Origin: a candidate division TM6 bacterium GW2011_GWF2_28_16
GTDB taxonomy: Bacteria > Babelota > Babeliae > Babelales > UASB340
NCBI GenBank assembly: GCA_000989185.1
Contig: LBNX01000004.1
Coordinates: 23,797-87,796, forward strand
DNA: 64,000 bases
Direction of reading: 5' to 3'
This document shows, in pieces, positions 240 to 59,834 of this stretch. Below the pieces are notes generated by a model that made no database searches, had not been told where the DNA came from, and was given only the letters and a program-made list of their open reading frames with translations. Position 1 is the first letter of the stretch; every line of letters begins with the position of its first letter. A program made the translations under genes and the position numbers.

Positions 240-467
240 TAAGACTCCTCTCTCGTTATAGTGTTAAACTTACTACCAACTCTTTTGAACATGTTTTTGC
301 GCCACACACGCAAAGTAGTGCCGCAGGCACTGTAGTACCGTGTTCGATACCATGCGATTAGGGTAGATATAAAAAAATATTATTTAAAGTATTTTTTTAA
401 TAATATAGGTTTGTCTTAAAGATAAAGGGTTTTTTGTGATTATAATTAATGTATTATTCTTGTACTT

Positions 468-500
468 GTTATGCTGAATTTGTTTCAGCATTTAGAAATA
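468..500 (+). repeat. F-type hairpin repeat, variant copy
   Basis: GTTATGCTGAA-tttgt-TTCAGCATTTAGAAATA. Same architecture as GTCATCCTGAA-cttgt-TTCAGGATCTAGATA at 59729, with paired stem changes (CC/GG to GC/GC). Confidence 0.55.
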
Positions 501-506
501 TAAATT

Positions 507-700
507 TTTTAACAAATTAATATTTTTTTAATAACAAAGTTCTTCTTTTAACAAAAGAAGAGGCTGTTGGCCTCTCCTTTTGAAATCCTCACCAACAAAA
601 GAGTAAACTCTTTTGAATCTCTTAACGCTTCAAATCGCACCTATCCACCTGTGGTGGAATAGGCGTCTCGATGAAGCTAATAAAGTATTTTATATAAATA
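507..700 (+). repeat. family-1 intergenic repeat, copy 1 (AT-rich leader, two hairpins, module A hairpin)
   Basis: 507-628 is near-identical to 2210-2332. Contains hairpins AGAGGC-tgttg-GCCTCT and AAAAGAG-taaa-CTCTTTT. Module A stem is CCTATCCACC-tgt-GGTGGAATAGG (640-663). Ends in AGCTAATAAAGTA, as the other copies do. Confidence 0.8.
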
Positions 701-3237: not shown

Positions 3238-4761
3238 ATGAACAAACTGTTAAAAGGTTTACTTGTCACAGCTTTAGTTGTTGGCACCGTAAACGCAGAT
3301 ACAAACAAAACATTCTTAATGCCTAGATCAGCTGGCGTTAATCTTCCAATGGAATACACAACATTTAATGAATTAATTCAACATAAAAATGGCGACTTCT
3401 TTGGAGCTCATTTCCAAGTAGTTCCATTTTATATGGATTCAACAAATGGTTCTGATATAGGTAAGTATTTTGGTATTGCTGGCAAAAATACATTTGTAAT
3501 TGGTAACTCAACTTTAGTTACAGCAGGTACAGCTGATATGAATTATGGATATATAATTCATAATATAGCAACTGCAGCAACTGCTGGTGTTGCAACATTG
3601 AATTTTGATCCAGAACTACAAGCTTATGGTGCAAGAATTGATTATTATCAAGATTTAGAAAAAATTCTTGATGGTTTATATTTAAAAGTTGCATTACCTA
3701 TAGTTCACACTGAAACAAAGATAAATAGAACAGTTTCATCTGTTACAGCAAGTAACAATTTGACAGAAGCACACTTGAATGAATATTTTGCTGGTACTTA
3801 TTCTCAAGATATTGCAGATGCAAATGCTCAAGCAGTTCTTGAACATGCAAAAAGAGATGGTTCTCATTCAGAAACATCTGTTGCAGACATTGATGTAGTA
3901 TTAGGCTACAAGATTTGGGACAAAGAAAAATACTCTTTTGCATTAAATCTTGGCTTAACAATTCCTGTTGGCAATGATGCTGATGGAGATTGGGCATTTG
4001 AACCAATAGTCGGCAATGGCGATCATTGGGGCTTTGGTGGTGGCTTAGATGCAATGGTAAGACTTTGGAAGAAGAATGATCAAGATATTAAATTAACATT
4101 AGCAGCTAACTATAGATATTTATTCTCTGGTACAGAAAAGAGAACATTGGGCTTAAATGATGTTGATGGTGTAGAAGTTCCTTTTGGCCAATATTATTTA
4201 GCAGCAACAATTGGTGATATACGTAGAACTCAACAATTACAACCTGTTGCAAATCTTTTAACACAAGATGTTAAAGTAGAGACAGGCAGCCAATTGGATG
4301 CAGAGTTATATTTTACATATAACAATGGTGGCTGGAATGTAGAACTTGGCTATAACCTATTCTACAAAGATTCTGAAGATGTAAGTCTTAAGAATGCTTG
4401 GTCAGACGGAGTATATGGTATAGCATTTATAGATCAAACATTTGCTACTGGTGGTGATGGTACTTTCGTAGCATCTGCAGATGGTACTGCCGCTGTTGGT
4501 GCTAATGGTGGTTCTCGTGGTCTTATAAACAATACTCCAACAAATACAGCTTTAGGCCAAACAACCAGAGCTTATGGTATCAATACCCATGTCGCAGAAT
4601 CAGCATCACAATTTACAAACAAGATCTTTGGTGGCGTTGGATATATTTTCAGAGAATGGGAATATCCAATGATGCTAAACATCAGTGGTGCATATGAATT
4701 TGCTGATCGTGATGCAATTGAAAATTGGCAAATCTGGGGTAAGATTGGCGTTAAATTTTAA
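3238..4761 (+). CDS. secreted outer-membrane beta-barrel candidate, OMP family paralogue 1
   Basis: 507 aa with signal peptide MNKLLKGLLVTALVVGTVNA and a C-terminal ...WGKIGVKF ending in Phe. Clear paralogy with 6994-8571 and 13647-15074 (TNKT(F/Y)L..RS, DIGKYFG, LQP.AN.LTQ.VK..(T/P)GS.LD). SD GGGGAAAG upstream. Confidence 0.65.
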   Translation: MNKLLKGLLVTALVVGTVNADTNKTFLMPRSAGVNLPMEYTTFNELIQHKNGDFFGAHFQVVPFYMDSTNGSDIGKYFGIAGKNTFVIGNSTLVTAGTADMNYGYIIHNIATAATAGVATLNFDPELQAYGARIDYYQDLEKILDGLYLKVALPIVHTETKINRTVSSVTASNNLTEAHLNEYFAGTYSQDIADANAQAVLEHAKRDGSHSETSVADIDVVLGYKIWDKEKYSFALNLGLTIPVGNDADGDWAFEPIVGNGDHWGFGGGLDAMVRLWKKNDQDIKLTLAANYRYLFSGTEKRTLGLNDVDGVEVPFGQYYLAATIGDIRRTQQLQPVANLLTQDVKVETGSQLDAELYFTYNNGGWNVELGYNLFYKDSEDVSLKNAWSDGVYGIAFIDQTFATGGDGTFVASADGTAAVGANGGSRGLINNTPTNTALGQTTRAYGINTHVAESASQFTNKIFGGVGYIFREWEYPMMLNISGAYEFADRDAIENWQIWGKIGVKF

Positions 4762-4935: not shown

Positions 4936-5404
4936 TTTATTTCGTCTTTAGGGGACTTCATTTTGGAAGTCCCCTATAACCCCTGCAAACAAAAGAGTAA
5001 ACTCTTTTGAATCTCTTGACGCTTCAAATCGCACCCCTCCACCGTTGGTGGAACGGGTGTCTCGATGAAGCTAATAAAGTACTTTTTATAAATTGTAGCA
5101 TTATATCTAGTGTTTAATTTAAAGATCTCCATATTAGACTTACCTTGTCTGCCTGTCCGCCGTCCTGTCCATCGAAGCCTTGGCAAAGTTGGAAGCCTTG
5201 TGCAAAGGCTGGAAGTGCCTAATGACGTTAGTCAGGAGGCACGAGTTAAGTCGTAATAAAGGGTTTTAAAAGGGTCTTCCCTTTTGACCTGCCCGCCATA
5301 GCCTTGGCGACGGCTGGGTTTACAGGGGTTATAGGGGACCATTAAATACATCGATGCCCTTTAGGCGTTGAGATGAAATCATGGTCCCCTAAAGACGAAA
5401 TAAA
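4936..5404. mobile_element. 469-bp composite palindromic element bounded by perfect inverted repeats (MITE-like, no ORF)
   Basis: Outer IR is TTTATTTCGTCTTTAGGGGAC (4936-4956) against GTCCCCTAAAGACGAAATAAA (5384-5404), 21/21. Inner IR is GTCCCCTATAACCCCTG (4969-4985) against CAGGGGTTATAGGGGAC (5323-5339), 17/17. The interior carries module A (4986-5099), module B (5154-5212), module C (5258-5286) and a CGCCATAGCCTTGGCGACGGC module. Confidence 0.6.
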
Positions 5405-5991: not shown

Positions 5992-6062
5992 AAATTTAAT
6001 AAAATTTAAATAAATTTAGCGTATTTTGATTATATAAATATTATAATTATTTGTTTTATAAC

Positions 6063-6112
6063 TTTTACTTGGCCTATAATTATACTTATTGCTATATTAA
6101 TTTTATTAAATA
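6063..6112 (+). repeat. 50-bp direct repeat, copy 1 (upstream of the MNT/HEPN pair)
   Basis: TTTTACTTGGCCTATAATTATACTTATTGCTATATTAATTTTATTAAATA. Matches 6875-6924 at 48/50. Confidence 0.85.
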
Positions 6113-6143
6113 TTTAAATGTTAAAAAAAACAGGAACATAAAT

Positions 6144-6458
6144 ATGAAAAATATTTTGGATGAAATAAAAAATAGATTAGTAAAAGTATATAGTCCTACA
6201 AAAATATATTTATTTGGCTCTAGCGCTTGGGGTAAGCAAACACCAGAAAGTGATTTAGACTTATTGATATTAATTCCAGAATCTAACGAAAGAAGTTACA
6301 AACGAGCAATTAAAGGAGAATTAGCTTTAGCAGATTTATTGGTTTCTAGAGATTTACTTGTTTATACAGAAAAAGAATTTGAATCTCTAGCAAGCGATGT
6401 AACTACTTTATGCTATAAAATAAAAAAAGAGGGAAAAGTAATCTATGCAAATGCATGA
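6144..6458 (+). CDS. nucleotidyltransferase-domain protein (MNT-type antitoxin)
   Basis: Start moved to the ATG at 6144, which has an AGGA SD. Contains the GS...D.D minimal nucleotidyltransferase motif (LFGSSAWGKQTPESDLDLLIL). Overlaps the downstream HEPN gene by 14 nt. Confidence 0.75.
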   Translation: MKNILDEIKNRLVKVYSPTKIYLFGSSAWGKQTPESDLDLLILIPESNERSYKRAIKGELALADLLVSRDLLVYTEKEFESLASDVTTLCYKIKKEGKVIYANA

Positions 6459-6864
6459 TGCATGGTTAAAAAAAGCTCATAGTGATTTATTAATAGCAAA
6501 AAAACTTTTTGATTTAAATGAGCTTGATTTATTTGATGGCGCAGCATATCACACTCAACAGTGTGCAGAAAAAGCTTTTAAATCATATTTGGCATATAAA
6601 AAACAAAATATTGAAAAAACACATAATTTAGTTTTATTGGTAAAATTATGTAGTCAGTATGATGCTGAATTTGAATCTTTATTGAATATATCAGCTATCT
6701 TAAATCCATATAGTATTAAATTTAGATATCCAGATGATGTAATGGTTCCAGAAAAGAGTGACTTAAAAGAGGCAATAGACTCTGCAGAAGTTATATTTAA
6801 ATTTATAAAGAAAAAAATTTCTGAGTTTAATACAGGACAGGGTAGTATATTTAGAAAATTATAA
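6445..6864 (+). CDS. HEPN-domain protein (toxin of the HEPN/MNT pair)
   Basis: 139 aa all-helical protein directly coupled to the MNT gene. The layout and size are typical of HEPN partners. Confidence 0.65.
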   Translation: MQMHDAWLKKAHSDLLIAKKLFDLNELDLFDGAAYHTQQCAEKAFKSYLAYKKQNIEKTHNLVLLVKLCSQYDAEFESLLNISAILNPYSIKFRYPDDVMVPEKSDLKEAIDSAEVIFKFIKKKISEFNTGQGSIFRKL

Positions 6865-6874
6865 ACTTTATAAA

Positions 6875-6924
6875 TTTTACTTGGTCTATAAATATACTTA
6901 TTGCTATATTAATTTTATTAAATA
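6875..6924 (+). repeat. 50-bp direct repeat, copy 2 (upstream of OMP paralogue 2)
   Basis: 48/50 identity with 6063-6112. The two copies bracket the complete MNT/HEPN operon. Confidence 0.85.
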
Positions 6925-6926
6925 GG

Positions 6927-6958
6927 ATTAGATCACGGCTCGGCGGCCGGGATGACAT
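6927..6958 (-). repeat. F-type hairpin repeat (GC-stem subtype)
   Basis: The rc reads GTCATCCCGGC-cgccga-GCCGTGATCTAA, with one stem mismatch. Confidence 0.65.
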
Positions 6959-6993
6959 ACTGTGTGATAGTATTTTTAAAAGAAAGAGAGAGT

Positions 6994-8571
6994 ATGAACA
7001 AAATTTCAAAAAATTTTATATTTAAATTTTTATTATTTTTAAATTTATTTTTTATAAATAATATTTATTCGACAGAAACAAATAAAACTTATCTTTTATC
7101 AAGATCTACTGGTGTAAACTTATCAATGGAGTACACGACTTTTAATAATTTTGTAAATTACAGAGATGATAAGCGTGCCCGGGATAATAAAGACAATAGC
7201 TTTGGGGCGCATATACAAGCAACGCCATATTATTTAGAATCGAATAATGGCAAAGATATAGGTAAATATTTTGGTTTTGATGATAAAAATATTTTACGAA
7301 TAGCTAGAAATAATATTGCTGGTTATGATCTAGATTTTAGATATATGGTGCATGATAATGTAAATACAGCAAATACAAATGCAATTGTAAAACTTGATCC
7401 AAAGTTTGAATCGTATGGTTTGCGTCTTGATTATTATCAAAAATTAGAAAAATTTCTCGATGGTTTATATTTTAAAATAGCTATACCAATATCTTATGTT
7501 AAAACAGATGTGCGATTAAATATTGCTGATCAGGCTGGATATTTTGTTGCTGGAACAAACACAGATTTGTATAAATATTTTGATGGCACTTATAATTTAC
7601 CTGTAGGTAATGCCCGAGCTCAAGCTGCTCTTGAATATGCAAAAATTTCTCAACATAAATTTTCAAAGACAAGCGTTGCAGATTTAGATTTAGTTTTAGG
7701 TTGCAAGTTTATAGATAGAGATAAATACTATGCAATAATAAATTTTGCATTAACAATACCAACAAATAACGAAGCTGGTGCCGGATATATGTTTGATGTA
7801 AATGTTGGCAATGGTAGTTATTGGGCTTTGGGTGGTGGGCTCGAAGGTATGATGCGCTTGTTTGGAAAAACAAATGATCATAATTTAAATTTAGTTGCAG
7901 TTGCAAATTATAGATATTTATTCGAAGGCAGAGCTGAGCGAACTATGGGTTTATTAAATCCAGATGGTACACGTGCAAACTGGGGCCAATATTATTTGGT
8001 TGGCGAAATTGGTACAGCTGTAAGTACACAACAGTTACAGCCTGCTGCAAATGTTTTGACACAAAGAGTAAAACTTGCTCCGGGTAGCCAATTAGATTCT
8101 ATGATCTATTTAAATTATAAATATTCTGGATTTACAGCAGAATTAGGTTATAACTTTTTCTGGCGTGATGACGAACAAATTAGTTTAAAAAATGAATGGC
8201 AAAATAATGTTTATGGCGTAGCAATTTTAGATCAAGATATGACTATTGCTGGAGGCGCAACTTTTGCAAACACTGGTTTTGCAGCTACAGCTGTACCTGT
8301 TAACGGTGGCTCTATGGGATATATTAATAATGACCCAGATAACACAGCTTTTACTGCTGCAGGAACAGTTGCAACTAGAGCTTATGGTTTAGATGAAGGT
8401 GTAGGTGCTGCCAGTTCACAAAATACACACAAAATTTTTGCTGGTTTGGGTTATGGCTTTTATGATTTTAAATTTCCCTGCATGCTTGGCATCGGCGGAG
8501 CATATGAATTTAATGGCGATGATGGAATTGAAAATTGGCAAGTTTATGGCAAAGTGGGATTAAAGTTTTAA
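6994..8571 (+). CDS. secreted outer-membrane beta-barrel candidate, OMP family paralogue 2
   Basis: Start moved to the ATG at 6994, after AGAAAGAGAGAG. Has a signal peptide and a C-terminal ...YGKVGLKF. Collinear with paralogue 1 along its whole length. Confidence 0.65.
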   Translation: MNKISKNFIFKFLLFLNLFFINNIYSTETNKTYLLSRSTGVNLSMEYTTFNNFVNYRDDKRARDNKDNSFGAHIQATPYYLESNNGKDIGKYFGFDDKNILRIARNNIAGYDLDFRYMVHDNVNTANTNAIVKLDPKFESYGLRLDYYQKLEKFLDGLYFKIAIPISYVKTDVRLNIADQAGYFVAGTNTDLYKYFDGTYNLPVGNARAQAALEYAKISQHKFSKTSVADLDLVLGCKFIDRDKYYAIINFALTIPTNNEAGAGYMFDVNVGNGSYWALGGGLEGMMRLFGKTNDHNLNLVAVANYRYLFEGRAERTMGLLNPDGTRANWGQYYLVGEIGTAVSTQQLQPAANVLTQRVKLAPGSQLDSMIYLNYKYSGFTAELGYNFFWRDDEQISLKNEWQNNVYGVAILDQDMTIAGGATFANTGFAATAVPVNGGSMGYINNDPDNTAFTAAGTVATRAYGLDEGVGAASSQNTHKIFAGLGYGFYDFKFPCMLGIGGAYEFNGDDGIENWQVYGKVGLKF

Positions 8572-12126: not shown

Positions 12127-13629
12127 ATGGAAAATTTATTTAAAATAATTAAAAAATTAAACCCAATATTAAAAGAAATAATAAATAATGGTTCTGTACC
12201 GTATCTTGTTGGTGGTAGCGTGCGAGATTTAGTTTTAAATTTAGAAACAAAAGATCTTGATATAGAAGTTCATAAAATATCTATAAAAGATTTAGAAAAA
12301 ATTTTAAAAAAATTTGGACATGTGCGTCTTGTTGGTCAAAAATTTGGTGTTTTAAAAATAGATGGAATAAACGTAGATTGGTCATTACCCAGAAAAGATA
12401 GTATTGGCAGAAAGCCAAAAGTTATAATAAAAAAAGATATTTCTATAAAAGATGCGCTTGTACGGCGTGATTTAACTATTAATGCAATGGCTATAGATTT
12501 GCGGGAGCTTTTAAAAAATAAAAATAATTTTAAAAAAATAATTATTGACCCATTTGGTGGCCTAAAAGATATTAAAAATAAAAAATTAAGAGTTATTGAT
12601 GCTAATTTTTTTGTTCAGGATCCTTTAAGATTATTTAGAGTTATGCAATTTGCAGCACGTTTTAATATGGCGCCAGATAAAAATTTAAATAATATTTGTA
12701 AAACTATGAGTTTGCAGGACCCAGCAACAGGAAAATTAATTTCGCGTGAACGAATTTTTGATGAAATTAAAAAATTATTATTAAAGAGTAAACAACCAAG
12801 TATTGGCTTTAGATGGCTATTAAAAATAAATAGATTAAAAGATATTTTTCCTGAAATTTATAATTTAATTGGTGTTAAACAGAAAAAAGAATATCATCCA
12901 GAGGGTGATGTGTTTGAGCACACTATGCAGTGTATAGATGTTGCTGCAAATCTTGATATTTATGAAACAGAAAACGAAAAATTCTTGATTATTTTAGCGC
13001 TTTTGTGTCACGATTTTGGCAAGCCAAAAGTTACAGATAAAAATTTATCAGCAATAGGGCACGAAAAAGAGGGCGTAGAAATTGCAAAAAAATTTTTAAA
13101 GCGAATTACGCGCGATAAAAATTTGATAAACTCTGTGTGCAAGTTGGTTTTGTATCACATGCAGCCAGCGCAATTATTAAAAAGTAATGCAAAAATTAGT
13201 GCATATAAAAGATTAGCTATAAAACTTGCCACAGATATAAACATGAAACAACTTGGCATTGTTTGGCTTGCGGATAATTTGGGACGGGTAGCGTATCGCT
13301 CGGGTAGACGCTTCGATACACCTCGCGTTGTTCGGCACTCAGCGCGAACGGGAAGTTTGAAAAAACACGCCGTGCAGGCTTTGTCATCCCGGGCAAGGAC
13401 CCGGGATCTAGAAAATAAAATAATAAGTGAGTTTAAACAATATTTAAAAATAATAAAAAATTTAAATATAGAAACAGGTCCGGAAAAGCCAATTTTACTT
13501 GGCCGTGATATTTTGGATAAAGTAAAACCAGGGCCTCAAATGGGTAAAATTTTAAAATGTGCTTATAAAATACAAATAGAGGAGGGTGTTAAAGATAAGG
13601 AGACGTTAAAGAAAAGAGTATTAAAGTAG
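12127..13629 (+). CDS. cca: CCA-adding enzyme / poly(A) polymerase family nucleotidyltransferase with HD domain
   Basis: N-terminal YLVGGSVRD...DLDIEV matches the class II nucleotidyltransferase GGxVRD...DxD motif. The HD-domain motif LLCHDFGK is present. Confidence 0.85.
   Translation: MENLFKIIKKLNPILKEIINNGSVPYLVGGSVRDLVLNLETKDLDIEVHKISIKDLEKILKKFGHVRLVGQKFGVLKIDGINVDWSLPRKDSIGRKPKVIIKKDISIKDALVRRDLTINAMAIDLRELLKNKNNFKKIIIDPFGGLKDIKNKKLRVIDANFFVQDPLRLFRVMQFAARFNMAPDKNLNNICKTMSLQDPATGKLISRERIFDEIKKLLLKSKQPSIGFRWLLKINRLKDIFPEIYNLIGVKQKKEYHPEGDVFEHTMQCIDVAANLDIYETENEKFLIILALLCHDFGKPKVTDKNLSAIGHEKEGVEIAKKFLKRITRDKNLINSVCKLVLYHMQPAQLLKSNAKISAYKRLAIKLATDINMKQLGIVWLADNLGRVAYRSGRRFDTPRVVRHSARTGSLKKHAVQALSSRARTRDLENKIISEFKQYLKIIKNLNIETGPEKPILLGRDILDKVKPGPQMGKILKCAYKIQIEEGVKDKETLKKRVLK
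13282..13413 (+). repeat. composite GC-rich palindromic element translated in frame within cca (ends in an F hairpin)
   Basis: 44 codons (about G386-E429, ...VAYRSGRRFDTPRVVRHSARTGSLKKHAVQALSSRARTRDLE). 13381-13413 is TTGTCATCCCGGG-caagga-CCCGGGATCTAGAA with a perfect stem. The 5' part shares CTCAG(C/G)GCGAACG(G/A)GA with 18462-18540. Confidence 0.75.
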
Positions 13630-13646: not shown

Positions 13647-15074
13647 ATGAAAAAAAATATTTTGTTATTATTAGTGCTTAGCTTATTTGCAGCTAACATA
13701 TCTGCATATACAAATAAAACATATATGCGCCCACAAGATAGTTCTACGTATTTACCAGATAGATTTAGAGTAAATGATTATTATAAAGCTGATTTTAAAA
13801 TGCCTAGCTTAATAGGTAAATTAGATATTACTGCTTATCATTTTCATTCTATAAGTAAAGATAAAATGGGAAGATATTTTGGTGTGAATGAAAAAAGTGA
13901 ATTTAATTTTATTGGTGATCAAACCAATGATGATATGGATATTGACTACAGATATTTAATTTCAAATTATTCTGCACATACTAATTATTCTGCAAAAATG
14001 AGTCTTGATCCAAAAACACAATATGCAGGCTTTAATGCATCTGTTATATTAGATTTATCTAGAATAAATAAACATTTAGCGTTTAAGATTAATGTTCCAT
14101 ATCAAAGAGTACATACAGATTTGCGTTCAAATTTTTCTTCTTCTAATGCAAGTTTGATTAAAGATTATTTAGCGGGTGATTATTCTTTAAATGTTGCAGC
14201 AGGTACTCGTAATCAAGAAGCATTAAGATATGCAAAAATTACTGATCAACAAGAAAAATTAGGCATTCCATTTATGGATTTTTGTCTTGCATATAACACT
14301 CATAACGAAGATGGTTTAATTAATACAGTAAAACTTGGATTTATTTCAACAGTAGAAAAAAAAGCTACAGCTGAATATCTTTTTGAACCAATATTAGGGA
14401 ACAATAATCACTTTGGTATTGATGTTGGTATTGAAGGTAGCAAAAGACTTTTTGATGGTAATGGTCATAGAAGTTTTGTAGATTTTGTTTGGGATTTAAA
14501 TTATAAATATTTATTCTCTAATACACAGTTTAGAACTTTGGGTATAAAGGGTGCAAACTGGGGACAATATTATTTATTAGGTAAAGAGGGCGTTTCTGGT
14601 GCATTTATTCCTGCTGCCAACGTTTTGACTCAAAATGTAAAAGTTGAACCAGGTAGTCACCTTGATTTAAATTTAGAATTATTATTTGGATATCATGCAT
14701 CTAGAGTTTCTGTTGGTGGTAATATTATTGCAAGACAAGAAGAAGAATTAGATTTTAAAAATAATCTTGCGACTCAAACTTATGGTGTAGTTACACCAGG
14801 AACATCTTCTGCTGTAAACTTTGATTTAAGTACTAATGTTGGACTTGGTAATTATACAACATATGCTTTAAGCAACGATAATATAGATTTAAAAGCTGCT
14901 CAAGCTCCAGGTATATTTGCTTACAAAGTTTATTTGCAGTATGCATATGATTATGTAAAACGAAATACAGAAAGAATGTTTACAGTCGCAACAGGTGTAT
15001 CTCTTAACATTACAGATCAGAATGCTCATTTTGACGGCATTGGGTGTTGGTTTAAGATGGCTGCATATTTTTAA
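13647..15074 (+). CDS. secreted outer-membrane beta-barrel candidate, OMP family paralogue 3 (divergent)
   Basis: 475 aa with signal peptide and TNKTYMRP start of the mature protein. Contains RYFG, NWGQYYLL and PAANVLTQNVKVEPGSHLD, and ends in Phe. Starts 17 nt after cca. Confidence 0.6.
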   Translation: MKKNILLLLVLSLFAANISAYTNKTYMRPQDSSTYLPDRFRVNDYYKADFKMPSLIGKLDITAYHFHSISKDKMGRYFGVNEKSEFNFIGDQTNDDMDIDYRYLISNYSAHTNYSAKMSLDPKTQYAGFNASVILDLSRINKHLAFKINVPYQRVHTDLRSNFSSSNASLIKDYLAGDYSLNVAAGTRNQEALRYAKITDQQEKLGIPFMDFCLAYNTHNEDGLINTVKLGFISTVEKKATAEYLFEPILGNNNHFGIDVGIEGSKRLFDGNGHRSFVDFVWDLNYKYLFSNTQFRTLGIKGANWGQYYLLGKEGVSGAFIPAANVLTQNVKVEPGSHLDLNLELLFGYHASRVSVGGNIIARQEEELDFKNNLATQTYGVVTPGTSSAVNFDLSTNVGLGNYTTYALSNDNIDLKAAQAPGIFAYKVYLQYAYDYVKRNTERMFTVATGVSLNITDQNAHFDGIGCWFKMAAYF

Positions 15075-18640: not shown

Positions 18641-20509
18641 TTAATTTTCTTTCCATGCATGTGTAATTCTAGGCTTAATATTTAATAATTCATAAACCTG
18701 TTCAGCCTGCAAAGTCTCTTCTAGTATTAATTTTTGCGCTAACAATTCGAGTTTTTCTTTGTTTTCTATTAGTAAATTTTGGGCTTTAGTATAACATTCT
18801 TGTATAATTTTTTCTATTTGTTCATCTACTAATTGTGCTGTTTTTTCCGAATGTCTTGGAGCTGCTTGTATATCTCGGCCAAGATATGGGTGTTCTTTTG
18901 TATCATCAAATGTAATAGGTCCCAATTCTGACATGCCAAAACGGGTTACCATTTTGCGGGCAATATTTGTTGCAACTTCTATGTCGTTACTTGCGCCACT
19001 GGTTTGTTCATTGAATTTTAATTTTTCAGCAAGCATTCCGCCCTGTAAAACCATAATTCTAGAAAGCATTTCACTTTTAGTTTCTGAATATTTATCTTTT
19101 TCTGGTAATGACCATGAAACACCCAAAGCTCTTCCTCTAGGGATAATAGAAACTTTATGAAATGGGTCTGTATCTGGTAATAATAAATTTAATAAGGTAT
19201 GACCAGATTCATGATATGCTGTTAACTCTTTTTCTTTATCGCTTAAACCTAGTGTTTTTCTTTCTGAGCCTAGCATAATTTTGTCTCTTGCCATTTCAAA
19301 ATCGTTTATTTCTACGCTTGCTTTGTTTGCTTTTGATGCTATTAAAGTTGCTTCGTTAATTAAGTTTTCTAAATCAGCTCCAGAAAAACCTGGTGTTCCA
19401 CGAGCGATTTTTTCTAGATCCATAGTAGGGCTTAGTTTTACATTTTTGACATGTACTTGTAATATTTTAAACCTACTGTCTAAGTCTGGATAAGGTACTT
19501 CAATAATTCTGTCAAAACGTCCTGGTCTTAATAATGCTTTATCTAAAACATCAGGTCTATTTGTTGCTGCTAAAATTATAACAGCACCATGTTCTGTTGA
19601 AAACCCATCCATTTCTGCTAATAATTGGTTTAATGTCTGTTCACGTTCGTCGTTACCGCCACCAAGGCCAATACCACGTTGTCTGCCAACAGCATCAATT
19701 TCATCTATAAAAACAATGCAAGGTGCATTTTTTTTGGCTTGAGCAAATAAATCACGAACTCGTGATGCGCCAACGCCTACAAAAACTTCAACAAAATCTG
19801 AACCTGAAATACTAAAAAATGGACAGTTAGCTTCACCTGCAACTGCTTTTGCCAAAAGAGTTTTGCCATTTCCTGGTGCACCTGTTAATAGAATACCTTT
19901 AGGAATTTTTGCACCTAAGCGTTCAAATTTTGCAGGGTTTTTTAAAAACTCTACAATATCTTTTAAATCTTCCTTGGCTTCTTGAACACCGGCTACATCT
20001 TTAAAATTTACATTTATAGTATTGGGTGAAAAAAATCTGGCTTTGCTTTTACCAACGTTAAATATTTTGCCAGCACCACTTGAACCGTTTTGTCCTTGAC
20101 GCATGTACATAAGCCATAAAAATATTAATAACAAAGGCAATAATGAGAAAAATAATAACCCGCCCCAGCCTTGTTTTTCGGCTGGTATTATGTTTGTTAT
20201 TATATTTTTTTCTTTAGCTAAATCACAAATTTTTTCTGGTGAGACTATATAAGTTTCAAATATTTTGCCATTTTTTAGTTTGCCTTGCACATGTTGATCT
20301 TGAATAGCAATAGATTCAACTTTATCTGTGCTTATTAATTCAATTAAATTTGTATAATTAATTTGTTCTATTTGTCTGTTGCCACTATTGTACCAAAACA
20401 AATAAACAAGTCCCATTGCGAGTAATACAAAAAGTAACCAGACGGCATTTGGTCCTTTTTTGTTAAAACCCGTTTTTTTTTCGTTTGTTGGTTTTTTTTT
20501 ATTTATCAT
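18641..20509 (-). CDS. ftsH: ATP-dependent zinc metalloprotease FtsH
   Basis: 622 aa with Walker A GAPGNGKT, the second region of homology, and the zinc motif HESGH. Confidence 0.95.
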
Positions 20510-59375: not shown

Positions 59376-59728
59376 AACATCAAAATGGTAGAAGAAAGCT
59401 GAGCGTAAAGCCGGCTCATAAAAAGGCTTTAGTCAGAAATCAGGCTATACATTTTATTAAAAATGGTGTTTTGCAAACAACCAAAACAAGAGCTAAAGAA
59501 GTACAGACTTTTGTAGAAAAAACAGTAACTATTGCAAGACAAGGCCAAGATTTTAATACAATAAGAAGAATTAAACAAATATTACCATACGATCAAGATA
59601 CAGTAATGAAACTTATAAAAGAAGTTGCTCCTAAGTATGTTGACCGTCCAGGTGGATATACAAGATTAATTTCTCTTGGACAAAGAGAAGGTGATACTGC
59701 AAAAGTAGCACGTCTTGAATGGGTTTAA
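59372..59728 (+). CDS. rplQ: 50S ribosomal protein L17
   Basis: ATGA overlap with rpoA, typical L17 position, and GGYTRLISLG. Confidence 0.92.
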   Translation: MKHQNGRRKLSVKPAHKKALVRNQAIHFIKNGVLQTTKTRAKEVQTFVEKTVTIARQGQDFNTIRRIKQILPYDQDTVMKLIKEVAPKYVDRPGGYTRLISLGQREGDTAKVARLEWV

Positions 59729-59762
59729 TTGTCATCCTGAACTTGTTTCAGGATCTAGATAT
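59729..59762 (+). repeat. F-type hairpin repeat (reference copy), immediately after the rplQ stop
   Basis: TTGTCATCCTGAA-cttgt-TTCAGGATCTAGATAT with a perfect 8-bp stem. It begins on the nucleotide after the TAA. Confidence 0.8.
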
Positions 59763-59783
59763 ATAAAGTTAAACCAATAAATT

Positions 59784-59822
59784 AAAAAAAAGACTCGTGA
59801 AAATATCACGAGTCTTTTTTTT
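59784..59822. terminator. bidirectional rho-independent terminator ending the ribosomal cluster
   Basis: A-run, AGACTCGTGA-aaata-TCACGAGTCT, T-run. Confidence 0.8.
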
Positions 59823-59834
59823 GTTTATATATTT

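Follow-up and report, generated by a model that had tools for sequence, protein, structure and literature searches.

Dispersed tagged hairpins in a TM6 bacterium very probably belong to the Ssn-related motifs

Six oriented hairpins around housekeeping genes

The window, meaning the whole 64,000-nucleotide stretch of TM6 DNA that we analyzed, sits on a groundwater contig of 265 kb, has a GC content of about 29% and carries mainly housekeeping genes, plus an MNT-HEPN pair. The CCA-adding enzyme encoded there matches a protein of candidate division TM6 bacterium GW2011_GWF2_28... with 100% identity. The stop codon of rplQ occupies positions 59726-59728, and a hairpin motif begins on the base right after it. 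The original prediction had described this motif as the reference copy of six repeats that share their flanks and differ in their stems, lying ahead of a separate terminator. We found that the six copies indeed exist with these flanks and stems, and that the reference copy stands exactly between the rplQ stop and a distinct terminator-like hairpin:

59729..59762, + strand: reference copy (hairpin confirmed at 59730-59759); T-TGTC tag, stem ATCCTGAA, loop CTTGT, stem TTCAGGAT, tail CTAG; -6.1 kcal/mol, z = -3.0 in the DNA fold; 45 bits in the covariance model
59783..59823, + strand: intrinsic-terminator-like hairpin with a T-run, separate from the repeat, context only
467..496, + strand: copy of the ATGCTGAA/TTCAGCAT subfamily; -6.9 kcal/mol; 33.5 bits
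2726..2755, - strand: copy with stem ATCCTGAA/TTCAGGAT, loop TTTAT, tail CCAG; -6.2 kcal/mol; 39.4 bits
6927..6957, - strand: decayed GC-type copy, ATCCCGGC/GCCGTGAT, one C-T mismatch, tail CTAAT; 34.3 bits
13382..13412, + strand: GC-type copy, ATCCCGGG / CAAGGA / CCCGGGAT; -8.6 kcal/mol; 43.2 bits
22380..22410, - strand: decayed GC-type copy, ATCCCAGG/CCCGTGAT, two mismatches; 39.5 bits

The copies of the window read (T)GTCAT-stem-loop-stem-ATC(T/C)AG. Five of the six carry the tag TGTC, all stems start with AT, and four of the six stems are perfect over 8 bp. The loops measure 5 nt in the AT-type copies and 6 nt in the GC-type copies, while the tails are CTA (four copies), CCA (one) and TTA (one). 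GTCAT and the C behind the stem are kept in five copies; copy 467 has lost both, having a degraded TGTT tag and a T in place of the C after the palindrome. In the window, three sites match the pattern TGTCATCC-N10-30-GATCTAGA exactly (0.00 expected from 100 shuffles), and the remaining three copies deviate by one to three flank bases (TGTT..TTTAGA in 467, ..CCAGA in 2726 and ..CTAAT in 6927).

A covariance model of the hairpin, built from 25 family members and run over the window, returned exactly these six copies with 33.5-45 bits (E <= 2e-7), and the next best matches reached at most 13 bits. Since the reverse strands of the same hairpins are among the matches that score only 8-13 bits, the element has an orientation. 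DNA folding of copies 59730, 2726, 467 and 13382 yields an 8-bp hairpin (-6.1 to -8.6 kcal/mol, z <= -3). The fold of copy 6927 is weak (z = -0.9) and copy 22380 gives no fold, so that both are decayed; they are real members of the set, and to call them near-paired, as had been done before, was generous.

Two of the copies lie in frame within genes. Copy 13382 is part of the gene for the CCA-adding enzyme (cca), where it encodes LSSRARTRDLE, and copy 22380 falls into the Lys/Glu-rich linker of a TolA/TonB-like gene. Copy 2726 lies between two genes and runs antisense to each of them; it adjoins a 60-nt repeat module at 2640-2699 and is not part of this module. Copy 6927 lies between the stop of the HEPN gene and the start of the next gene, again antisense to both. 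None of the copies has a T-run directly on its 3' side. A search of Rfam gave no match at gathering thresholds, and the matches at permissive E-values were driven by the neighbouring terminator only.

Copies along the contig and differences between strains

The contig has five further copies on the upstream side of the window (about 9 kb), in L245:

L245 19315-19344: TGTC-tagged copy, perfect 8-bp stem
L245 19594-19623: TGTC-tagged copy, perfect 8-bp stem
L245 19705-19735: TGTC-tagged copy, perfect 8-bp stem
L245 near 12886 and near 12931: two GGTC-tagged copies with the further stem types ATCCTCGA and ATCCTCAA

This brings the total to 11 copies in about 79 kb (window and L245 together), seven of which keep a perfect 8-bp palindrome. 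Five of the 11 lie on the + strand of the window and six on the - strand, and these 11 copies show no replication-strand bias, though the cumulative GC skew climbs almost continuously across the window. The copies of the window are all solitary, and L245 has a head-to-head pair (19594-19623 and 19705-19735) and a tandem pair (12886 and 12931). Three of the 11 copies overlap confirmed genes and three overlap an uncharacterised called ORF. The latter, 204 aa long and located next to rplS (L245 19210-19824), has no Pfam match and harbours three perfect hairpin copies in addition to a GC-rich stretch; either a small gene has been heavily invaded here, or a mosaic intergenic region was mistaken for a gene.

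The hairpins have boundaries of their own. The flanks of the six window copies are mutually unrelated, and the 60-nt module that adjoins copy 2726 is present a second time, at 5154-5213, where there is no hairpin. We also considered whether the hairpin forms one end of a single larger repeat and rejected this: the flanks are unrelated, the 60-nt module recurs alone, and a 93-nt module next to the cca copy is unique. The possibility raised together with the original prediction, that the copies are fragments of a single larger element, thus gave way to independent modules.

Comparison with relatives showed that occupied and empty sites coexist. At the rplQ site, L003 has the hairpin, while L004 and L002 are without it despite an identical encoded RplQ. 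The hairpin is not the terminator, as the prediction had held, since L004 keeps the identical terminator and has 6 nt in place of the 47 nt of the window. In cca the hairpin forms the end of a larger insert:

13288..13411, + strand: composite GC-rich cca insert of about 124 nt, made of a unique module of about 93 nt with the hairpin at its 3' end

According to the DNA alignment with the relative L250, this insert of about 124 nt stands where the gene of the closest orthologue has about 25 nt; in the protein alignment with P0002 it adds about 33 residues between the HD and the C-terminal domains. The hairpin of the TolA-like gene is missing from the L250 orthologue, and the syntenic 11.6 kb of L250 contain no intact copy, with one hairpin there lacking the tag. 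Compared with the empty sites, the filled ones show a replacement (47 nt for 6 and about 124 nt for 25) instead of a clean insertion. Presence and absence between near-identical strains imply a recent turnover, and the copies are most likely independent oriented modules that are gained or lost on short time scales. Another cca orthologue, the Dependentiae-like CCA-adding enzyme P0007, has a different, GC-rich-looking insert of 13 residues (PVRPERSRRMAGV, alignment columns 134-146) at another position; therefore repeat invasion of cca may be recurrent.

These data bear on a possible role of the hairpin at the level of the transcript, as a 3'-UTR stabiliser, a processing site or an attenuator. 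The reference copy would fit, being sense, directly behind the rplQ stop and upstream of the terminator, and Di Nocera, De Gregorio and Rocco (BMC Genomics 2013, PMC3733652) argue that many REPs downstream of ORFs may act as RNA. We nevertheless consider an RNA element very unlikely. Relative to the local genes, the nine TGTC-tagged copies on the contig are divided into five sense and four antisense. Of the six copies in the window, three lie antisense between co-directional genes and two are within coding sequence, and the antisense copies are equally conserved. The same rplQ and terminator exist without the hairpin in L004, no Rfam family matches, and the tag and tail are conserved too, not the stem alone. 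Moreover, the nuclease Ssn, which we discuss below as the partner, does not bind RNA (Chenal et al., Nat Commun 2025, PMC11893778). Of the prediction that selection acts on RNA or on single-stranded DNA, the relevance of a single strand stands; the mixed orientation, the intragenic copies and an enzyme restricted to ssDNA (PMC11893778) point to DNA rather than RNA.

The contig was also inspected for genes that could move the copies. A Pfam scan of 30 window and flank ORFs revealed no transposase and no recombinase/nuclease. Neisseria dRS3 serves filamentous prophages with a Piv/IS110-type recombinase, and the TM6 hairpins could likewise be recombination or integration sites for another mobile element. 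They belong to the same repeat superfamily as dRS3 (PMC3733652), one of them sits exactly at a boundary of the composite cca insert, and the hairpins lie among mosaic repeat modules. Against this, no recombinase, prophage or IS110-like gene adjoins any window copy, and most copies are solitary with nothing inserted beside them, which makes such a role highly improbable.

The surroundings of the hairpins are repeat-rich in other respects as well. Further GC-rich modules of 60-190 nt, 77-95% identical, in both orientations and some of them palindromic, are present around porin-like paralogues (window 500-700, 2200-2700 and 4950-5400; L245 12800-12870 and 16280-16520), in a mosaic layout that resembles the Neisseria intergenic mosaic elements. 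A short motif related to these modules, CCAGGCTTCGCATAAAGCTAC...CGGACA, is found inside the loop of the downstream hairpin at the ssn locus L220. A 68-bp direct repeat (window 6045-6112 and 6857-6924, 90% identical) brackets the pair of MNT (nucleotidyltransferase) and HEPN genes at 6051-6864, and its second copy is directly followed by hairpin copy 6927; the arrangement resembles a cassette insertion in which a promoter-like region became duplicated. Three paralogous genes (3238-4761, 6952-8571 and 13647-15074) encode proteins of about 475-540 aa with signal peptides and without Pfam match, which share conserved blocks such as an NYRYLF motif, and each adjoins repeat-rich intergenic DNA or a hairpin copy.

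The hairpin family and its association with ssn genes

In order to look at the family beyond TM6, we scanned a single genome for each species and kept nothing but the two flanks fixed. At least 120 loci were obtained, from CPR/Patescibacteria, Chloroflexi, Desulfobacterota, Fibrobacter, Wolbachia, Rickettsia, Tisiphia, Dependentiae and others; the same-flank hairpins of Rickettsia and Tisiphia are in loci L009, L051 and L077. Among the 128 matches listed, 26 have at least eight consecutive Watson-Crick pairs, compared with 0.15 expected when the interiors are shuffled, and 58 combine a 5-bp outer stem with tandem G-A pairs and a mini-hairpin of the GCGAAGC type; about 33 look like chance. In the matches listed, each of the stem pairs 5-8 occurs as two to four different Watson-Crick pair types. 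The claim that structure is kept while the inner stem varies is hence borne out by this flank-anchored scan, which is the unbiased test. An alignment of 25 members gave 98.5% of cells paired and 46 double-sided changes, a count that overstates the pairing because 16 of the sequences were chosen for perfect pairing.

A metagenome scan with the pattern TGTCATCCTGAA-N4-6-TTCAGGATC also returned at least 120 loci, with 26-71% GC among the matches listed. Here the loops, again among the matches listed, were CTTGT (59), TTTAT (27) and CTTGA (11), the same as those of the window.

For the next analysis, four ssn homologues were picked by protein similarity alone, namely P0142 (from TM6 GW2011_GWF2_37..., of the same aquifer study), P0248, P0275 (from Dependentiae) and P0250. 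All four loci have TGTC/CGTC-ATCCTGAA-N5-TTCAGGAT-C on both sides, within 100 nt of the putative ssn gene, and the two hairpins are inverted, with the tags pointing outward and the tails toward the gene. Scans that started from the hairpin led to the same kind of gene: a GIY-YIG gene is bracketed in L220 and L206 and adjoined in L173 and L136. The tags of the ssn-flanking copies are CGTC, AGTC and TGTC.

The stem types of the window recur at these genes. In L247 the upstream ssn-flanking copy has the ATGCTGAA/TTCAGCAT (ATGC/GCAT) stem of window copy 467, and in another TM6 genome both the ATCC and the ATGC stem forms flank one putative ssn gene. Taken together, the ATCCTGAA/TTCAGGAT hairpin and its ATGC/GCAT variant bracket a putative ssn in inverted arrangement in another TM6 genome and at five other loci. 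GC-type hairpins stand next to a putative ssn in L111, L101, L069 and L074; in the CPR locus L111 the stem ATCCCGGC/GCCGGGAT follows the gene. Because the stem types recur in unrelated genomes and around ssn, the stem differences, which had been read as compensatory changes within this genome, are mostly differences between established subfamilies that existed before, and they do not attest compensatory evolution in this genome.

The hairpin-flanked GIY-YIG proteins have 98-114 aa with PF01541 as the sole domain, and their assignment to cd10448 (Ssn) was judged from this size, the single PF01541 domain and the context. NCBIfam gave only a sub-threshold GIY-YIG match for the Ssn-like proteins (TIGR01453), and the PDB contains no relative of them. 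As a side observation, a gene of the PDDEXK_9 family (PF08011) is found just beyond the window, at a distance of 6.8 kb downstream of rplQ (L001 17128-18225), and a PDDEXK_9-family gene is also located immediately downstream of the ssn gene of a Dependentiae locus (L254 2292-2765); this may be coincidence.

The gene that the hairpin brackets speaks directly to the question of the partner, for which a Y1 transposase of the RAYT/IS200-like type had been suggested. Classical REPs mobilised by such an enzyme share with our elements the short tagged palindrome, the ssDNA hairpin, the inverted pairs around the enzyme gene and the mosaic intergenic regions. Yet the tag is TGTC/CGTC and not GTAG, Di Nocera et al. 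found CGTC units around none of the RAYT or IS200 genes (PMC3733652), no Y1 domain was seen in the scanned window ORFs or in the precomputed annotations of L001 and L245, and the gene bracketed elsewhere by the hairpin is a GIY-YIG gene. A RAYT-type REP is thus extremely unlikely, and the partner to be expected is the small GIY-YIG nuclease Ssn.

We found no ssn gene, intact or as a remnant, when 84 kb (window, L001 and L245), about a third of the 265-kb contig, were searched by HMM and tblastn. The best 120 protein-database matches named only other TM6/Dependentiae genomes, and an ssn of the window genome was not among them. Therefore the copies may be orphans, decaying remnants of a past invasion that have no present enzyme partner and are neutral, with the palindrome as a legacy. 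Two of the six window copies no longer pair properly, one copy lacks both the C of the tag and the critical C behind the stem, and elsewhere 19% of the genomes with more than 200 Ssn-related motifs (SRM) lack an ssn homologue (PMC11893778). Still, seven of the 11 contig copies remain perfect 8-bp palindromes, near-identical strains differ in presence, which implies recent turnover, and the ssn search covered about a third of one contig. We regard orphan relics as rather unlikely overall; for this genome they are a real possibility, which leaves the family identity of the hairpins unchanged.

The AT-type hairpin also occurs in 54 viral-contig stretches from IMG/VR (L256-L309), in which we found no ssn-like ORF. 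Viral contigs with at least two copies have nearly all of them co-oriented (9/0, 6/0, 4/0, 3/0, 3/0 and 4/1), so that minority copies amount to 4 of 47 (P about 2e-5 if orientation were random). In the viral contigs, the tagged strand tends to be C- and T-rich (mean GC skew -0.105, 74% negative), and crude ORF calls suggest that the viral copies do not just follow the sense strand of genes. Among cellular metagenome loci that have at least two copies, inverted pairs dominate and a skew bias is absent.

Proposed mechanism and comparison with known systems

From these data we conclude that the "F-hairpins" of the original prediction are very probably dispersed SRM copies, that is, NTS-like, CGTC/TGTC-tagged REPs of the group that includes Neisseria dRS3/NTS and Rickettsia RPE-4/RPE-6. 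The module would comprise about 30 nt in a fixed orientation, with an unpaired (T/C)GTC tag, an 8-bp stem starting from A,T, a loop of 5-6 nt and a C-Y-R-G tail. It would work on single-stranded DNA: the tagged strand, when unpaired, is predicted to fold into the hairpin, which would then be the binding site of Ssn, a single-domain GIY-YIG nuclease of about 95-100 aa that would cut the ssDNA a few bases 5' of the tag. Indirect support for this comes only from the strand asymmetry of the motif (45 versus 10-13 bits) and from an orientation that is independent of genes. Two inverted hairpins that bracket ssn with the tags outward may represent a "master" arrangement, similar to an insertion sequence. 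The solitary TM6 copies could then be its non-autonomous, MITE-like progeny, which would be gained and lost between near-identical strains and whose in-frame insertion into genes would be tolerated. Presumably a cognate Ssn acts, or once acted, on the copies of this genome, and Ssn-linked events would have spread them. Because the 84 kb are free of ssn and the sites are of the replacement type, we only infer this functional link here, and an activity on the stem variants is putative.

One may speculate further that hairpin and ssn together form an autonomous ssDNA mobile element, a GIY-YIG counterpart of IS200/RAYT, which spreads across phyla and viruses and of which the solitary TM6 copies are the MITE-like progeny; the co-orientation in viruses would then reflect either strand-specific insertion or selection against the strand that Ssn can cleave. 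We offer this as a tentative idea, possible but on the doubtful side. If true, a single near-identical 25-nt hairpin would now be spreading through contigs of 26-71% GC, and if selection against the cleavable strand holds, Ssn would be an anti-viral ssDNA restriction enzyme.

The hairpin family as such is already known; new here are the host phylum, TM6/Dependentiae, and an uncatalogued stem subfamily. The enzyme partner of the family was identified only in 2025, and the TM6 repeat can now very probably be placed in this family. How CGTC/SRM hairpins spread was left open by both Di Nocera et al. and Chenal et al., and the rplQ, cca and TolA-like sites provide concrete junctions for this question. 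The ATCCTGAA/TTCAGGAT hairpin together with a nuclease of the P0142 type is a candidate for a new specificity in ssDNA-cutting tools. For annotation it matters that, in AT-rich symbiont genomes, such hairpins give rise to in-frame peptide inserts and to spurious ORFs.

Among the closest known systems is the NTS of Neisseria, an oriented hairpin with the consensus CGTCATTCCCGCGMAVGCGGGAATCYRG. Its nuclease SsnA, a 94-aa single-domain GIY-YIG protein, binds the NTS as ssDNA only, not as dsDNA or RNA, and cuts the ssDNA a few nucleotides upstream of it. Binding depends most on the C that follows the palindrome, cleavage on the conserved bases in front of it, GTC(A/T). SRMs are found near 71% of the ssn homologues, and the ssn-NTS pair restricts transformation in N. 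meningitidis; Dependentiae go unmentioned (PMC11893778). The TM6 hairpins agree with NTS/SRM in the orientation, the 5' (C/T)GTCAT tag, the palindrome, the C right behind it and the YRG tail. Inverted repeats bracketing a GIY-YIG gene of about 95-100 aa, the many dispersed solitary copies and the enrichment in host-associated bacteria are common to both. NTS repeats have been reported to cluster around outer-membrane protein genes in Neisseria, and the placement of the TM6 signal-peptide paralogues recalls that clustering. The TM6 hairpins differ from NTS/SRM in the host and in that ssn was not found in the 84 kb searched, in the share of intragenic copies (three of 11 in confirmed genes, versus 2% in N. 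meningitidis) and in the AT-type stem, which is A/T-rich at its inner half (CCTGAA/TTCAGG). This last difference has a practical consequence. The SRM motif, transcribed from the published text as HGTCWYN(0-2)YYVSBRHN(0-5)WNVSBRGN(0-2)RNCYNB (PMC11893778), fits only one of the six window copies, namely 13382. All AT-type copies fail it, the ssn-flanking ones included, because the motif demands S (G/C) at the inner stem positions. As the motif misses the widespread, ssn-bracketing ATCCTGAA/TTCAGGAT subfamily, SRM censuses are probably underestimates.

The CGTC-tagged REPs, whose members include Neisseria dRS3 (CGTC-1) as well as Rickettsia RPE-6 and RPE-4, are described with an unpaired tag that is "changed to TGTC" in many of them, TGTC or CCTC being allowed as well, stems of 8-9 bp with A,T nearly always in the first two positions, loops of 4-5 nt and a tail of 3 nt, for the most part CCA. 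Copies may be intragenic, a dedicated (tyrosine) transposase is missing, and head-to-head dimers are a tendency and not a requirement (PMC3733652). The TM6 copies share the CGTC/TGTC tag and the 8-bp stem from A,T, and likewise include intragenic copies and have no tyrosine transposase in the ORFs scanned. They also lie among mosaic intergenic repeats, as in the Neisseria NIMEs. Loop and tail agree in part and depart slightly: the AT-type loops have 5 nt and the GC-type loops 6 nt, and the 3-nt tail is CCA in copy 2726 but mostly CTA. The copies are mostly solitary instead of head-to-head dimers, of which there is one pair, in L245.

With the GTAG-tagged REP/BIME and RAYT systems the hairpins have in common a tagged ssDNA hairpin, a small nuclease and a gene bracketed by inverted copies. 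The tag of TM6 is TGTC, however, and the enzyme is GIY-YIG, not HUH/Y1; a transposition by Ssn would be hypothetical.

Finally, the palindromic elements of Rickettsia (RPEs) are 100-150 nt long, while the TM6 unit has 30 nt, or 124 nt in the cca composite. Ogata et al. in 2000 reportedly described them as inserted in frame in protein genes. Sequence similarity between RPEs and the TM6 elements is confined to the hairpin and its flanks. In both cases, GC-richer palindromic inserts keep the frame in essential genes of an AT-rich intracellular bacterium, the TM6 counterpart sites being the inter-domain region of cca and the linker of the TolA-like gene.
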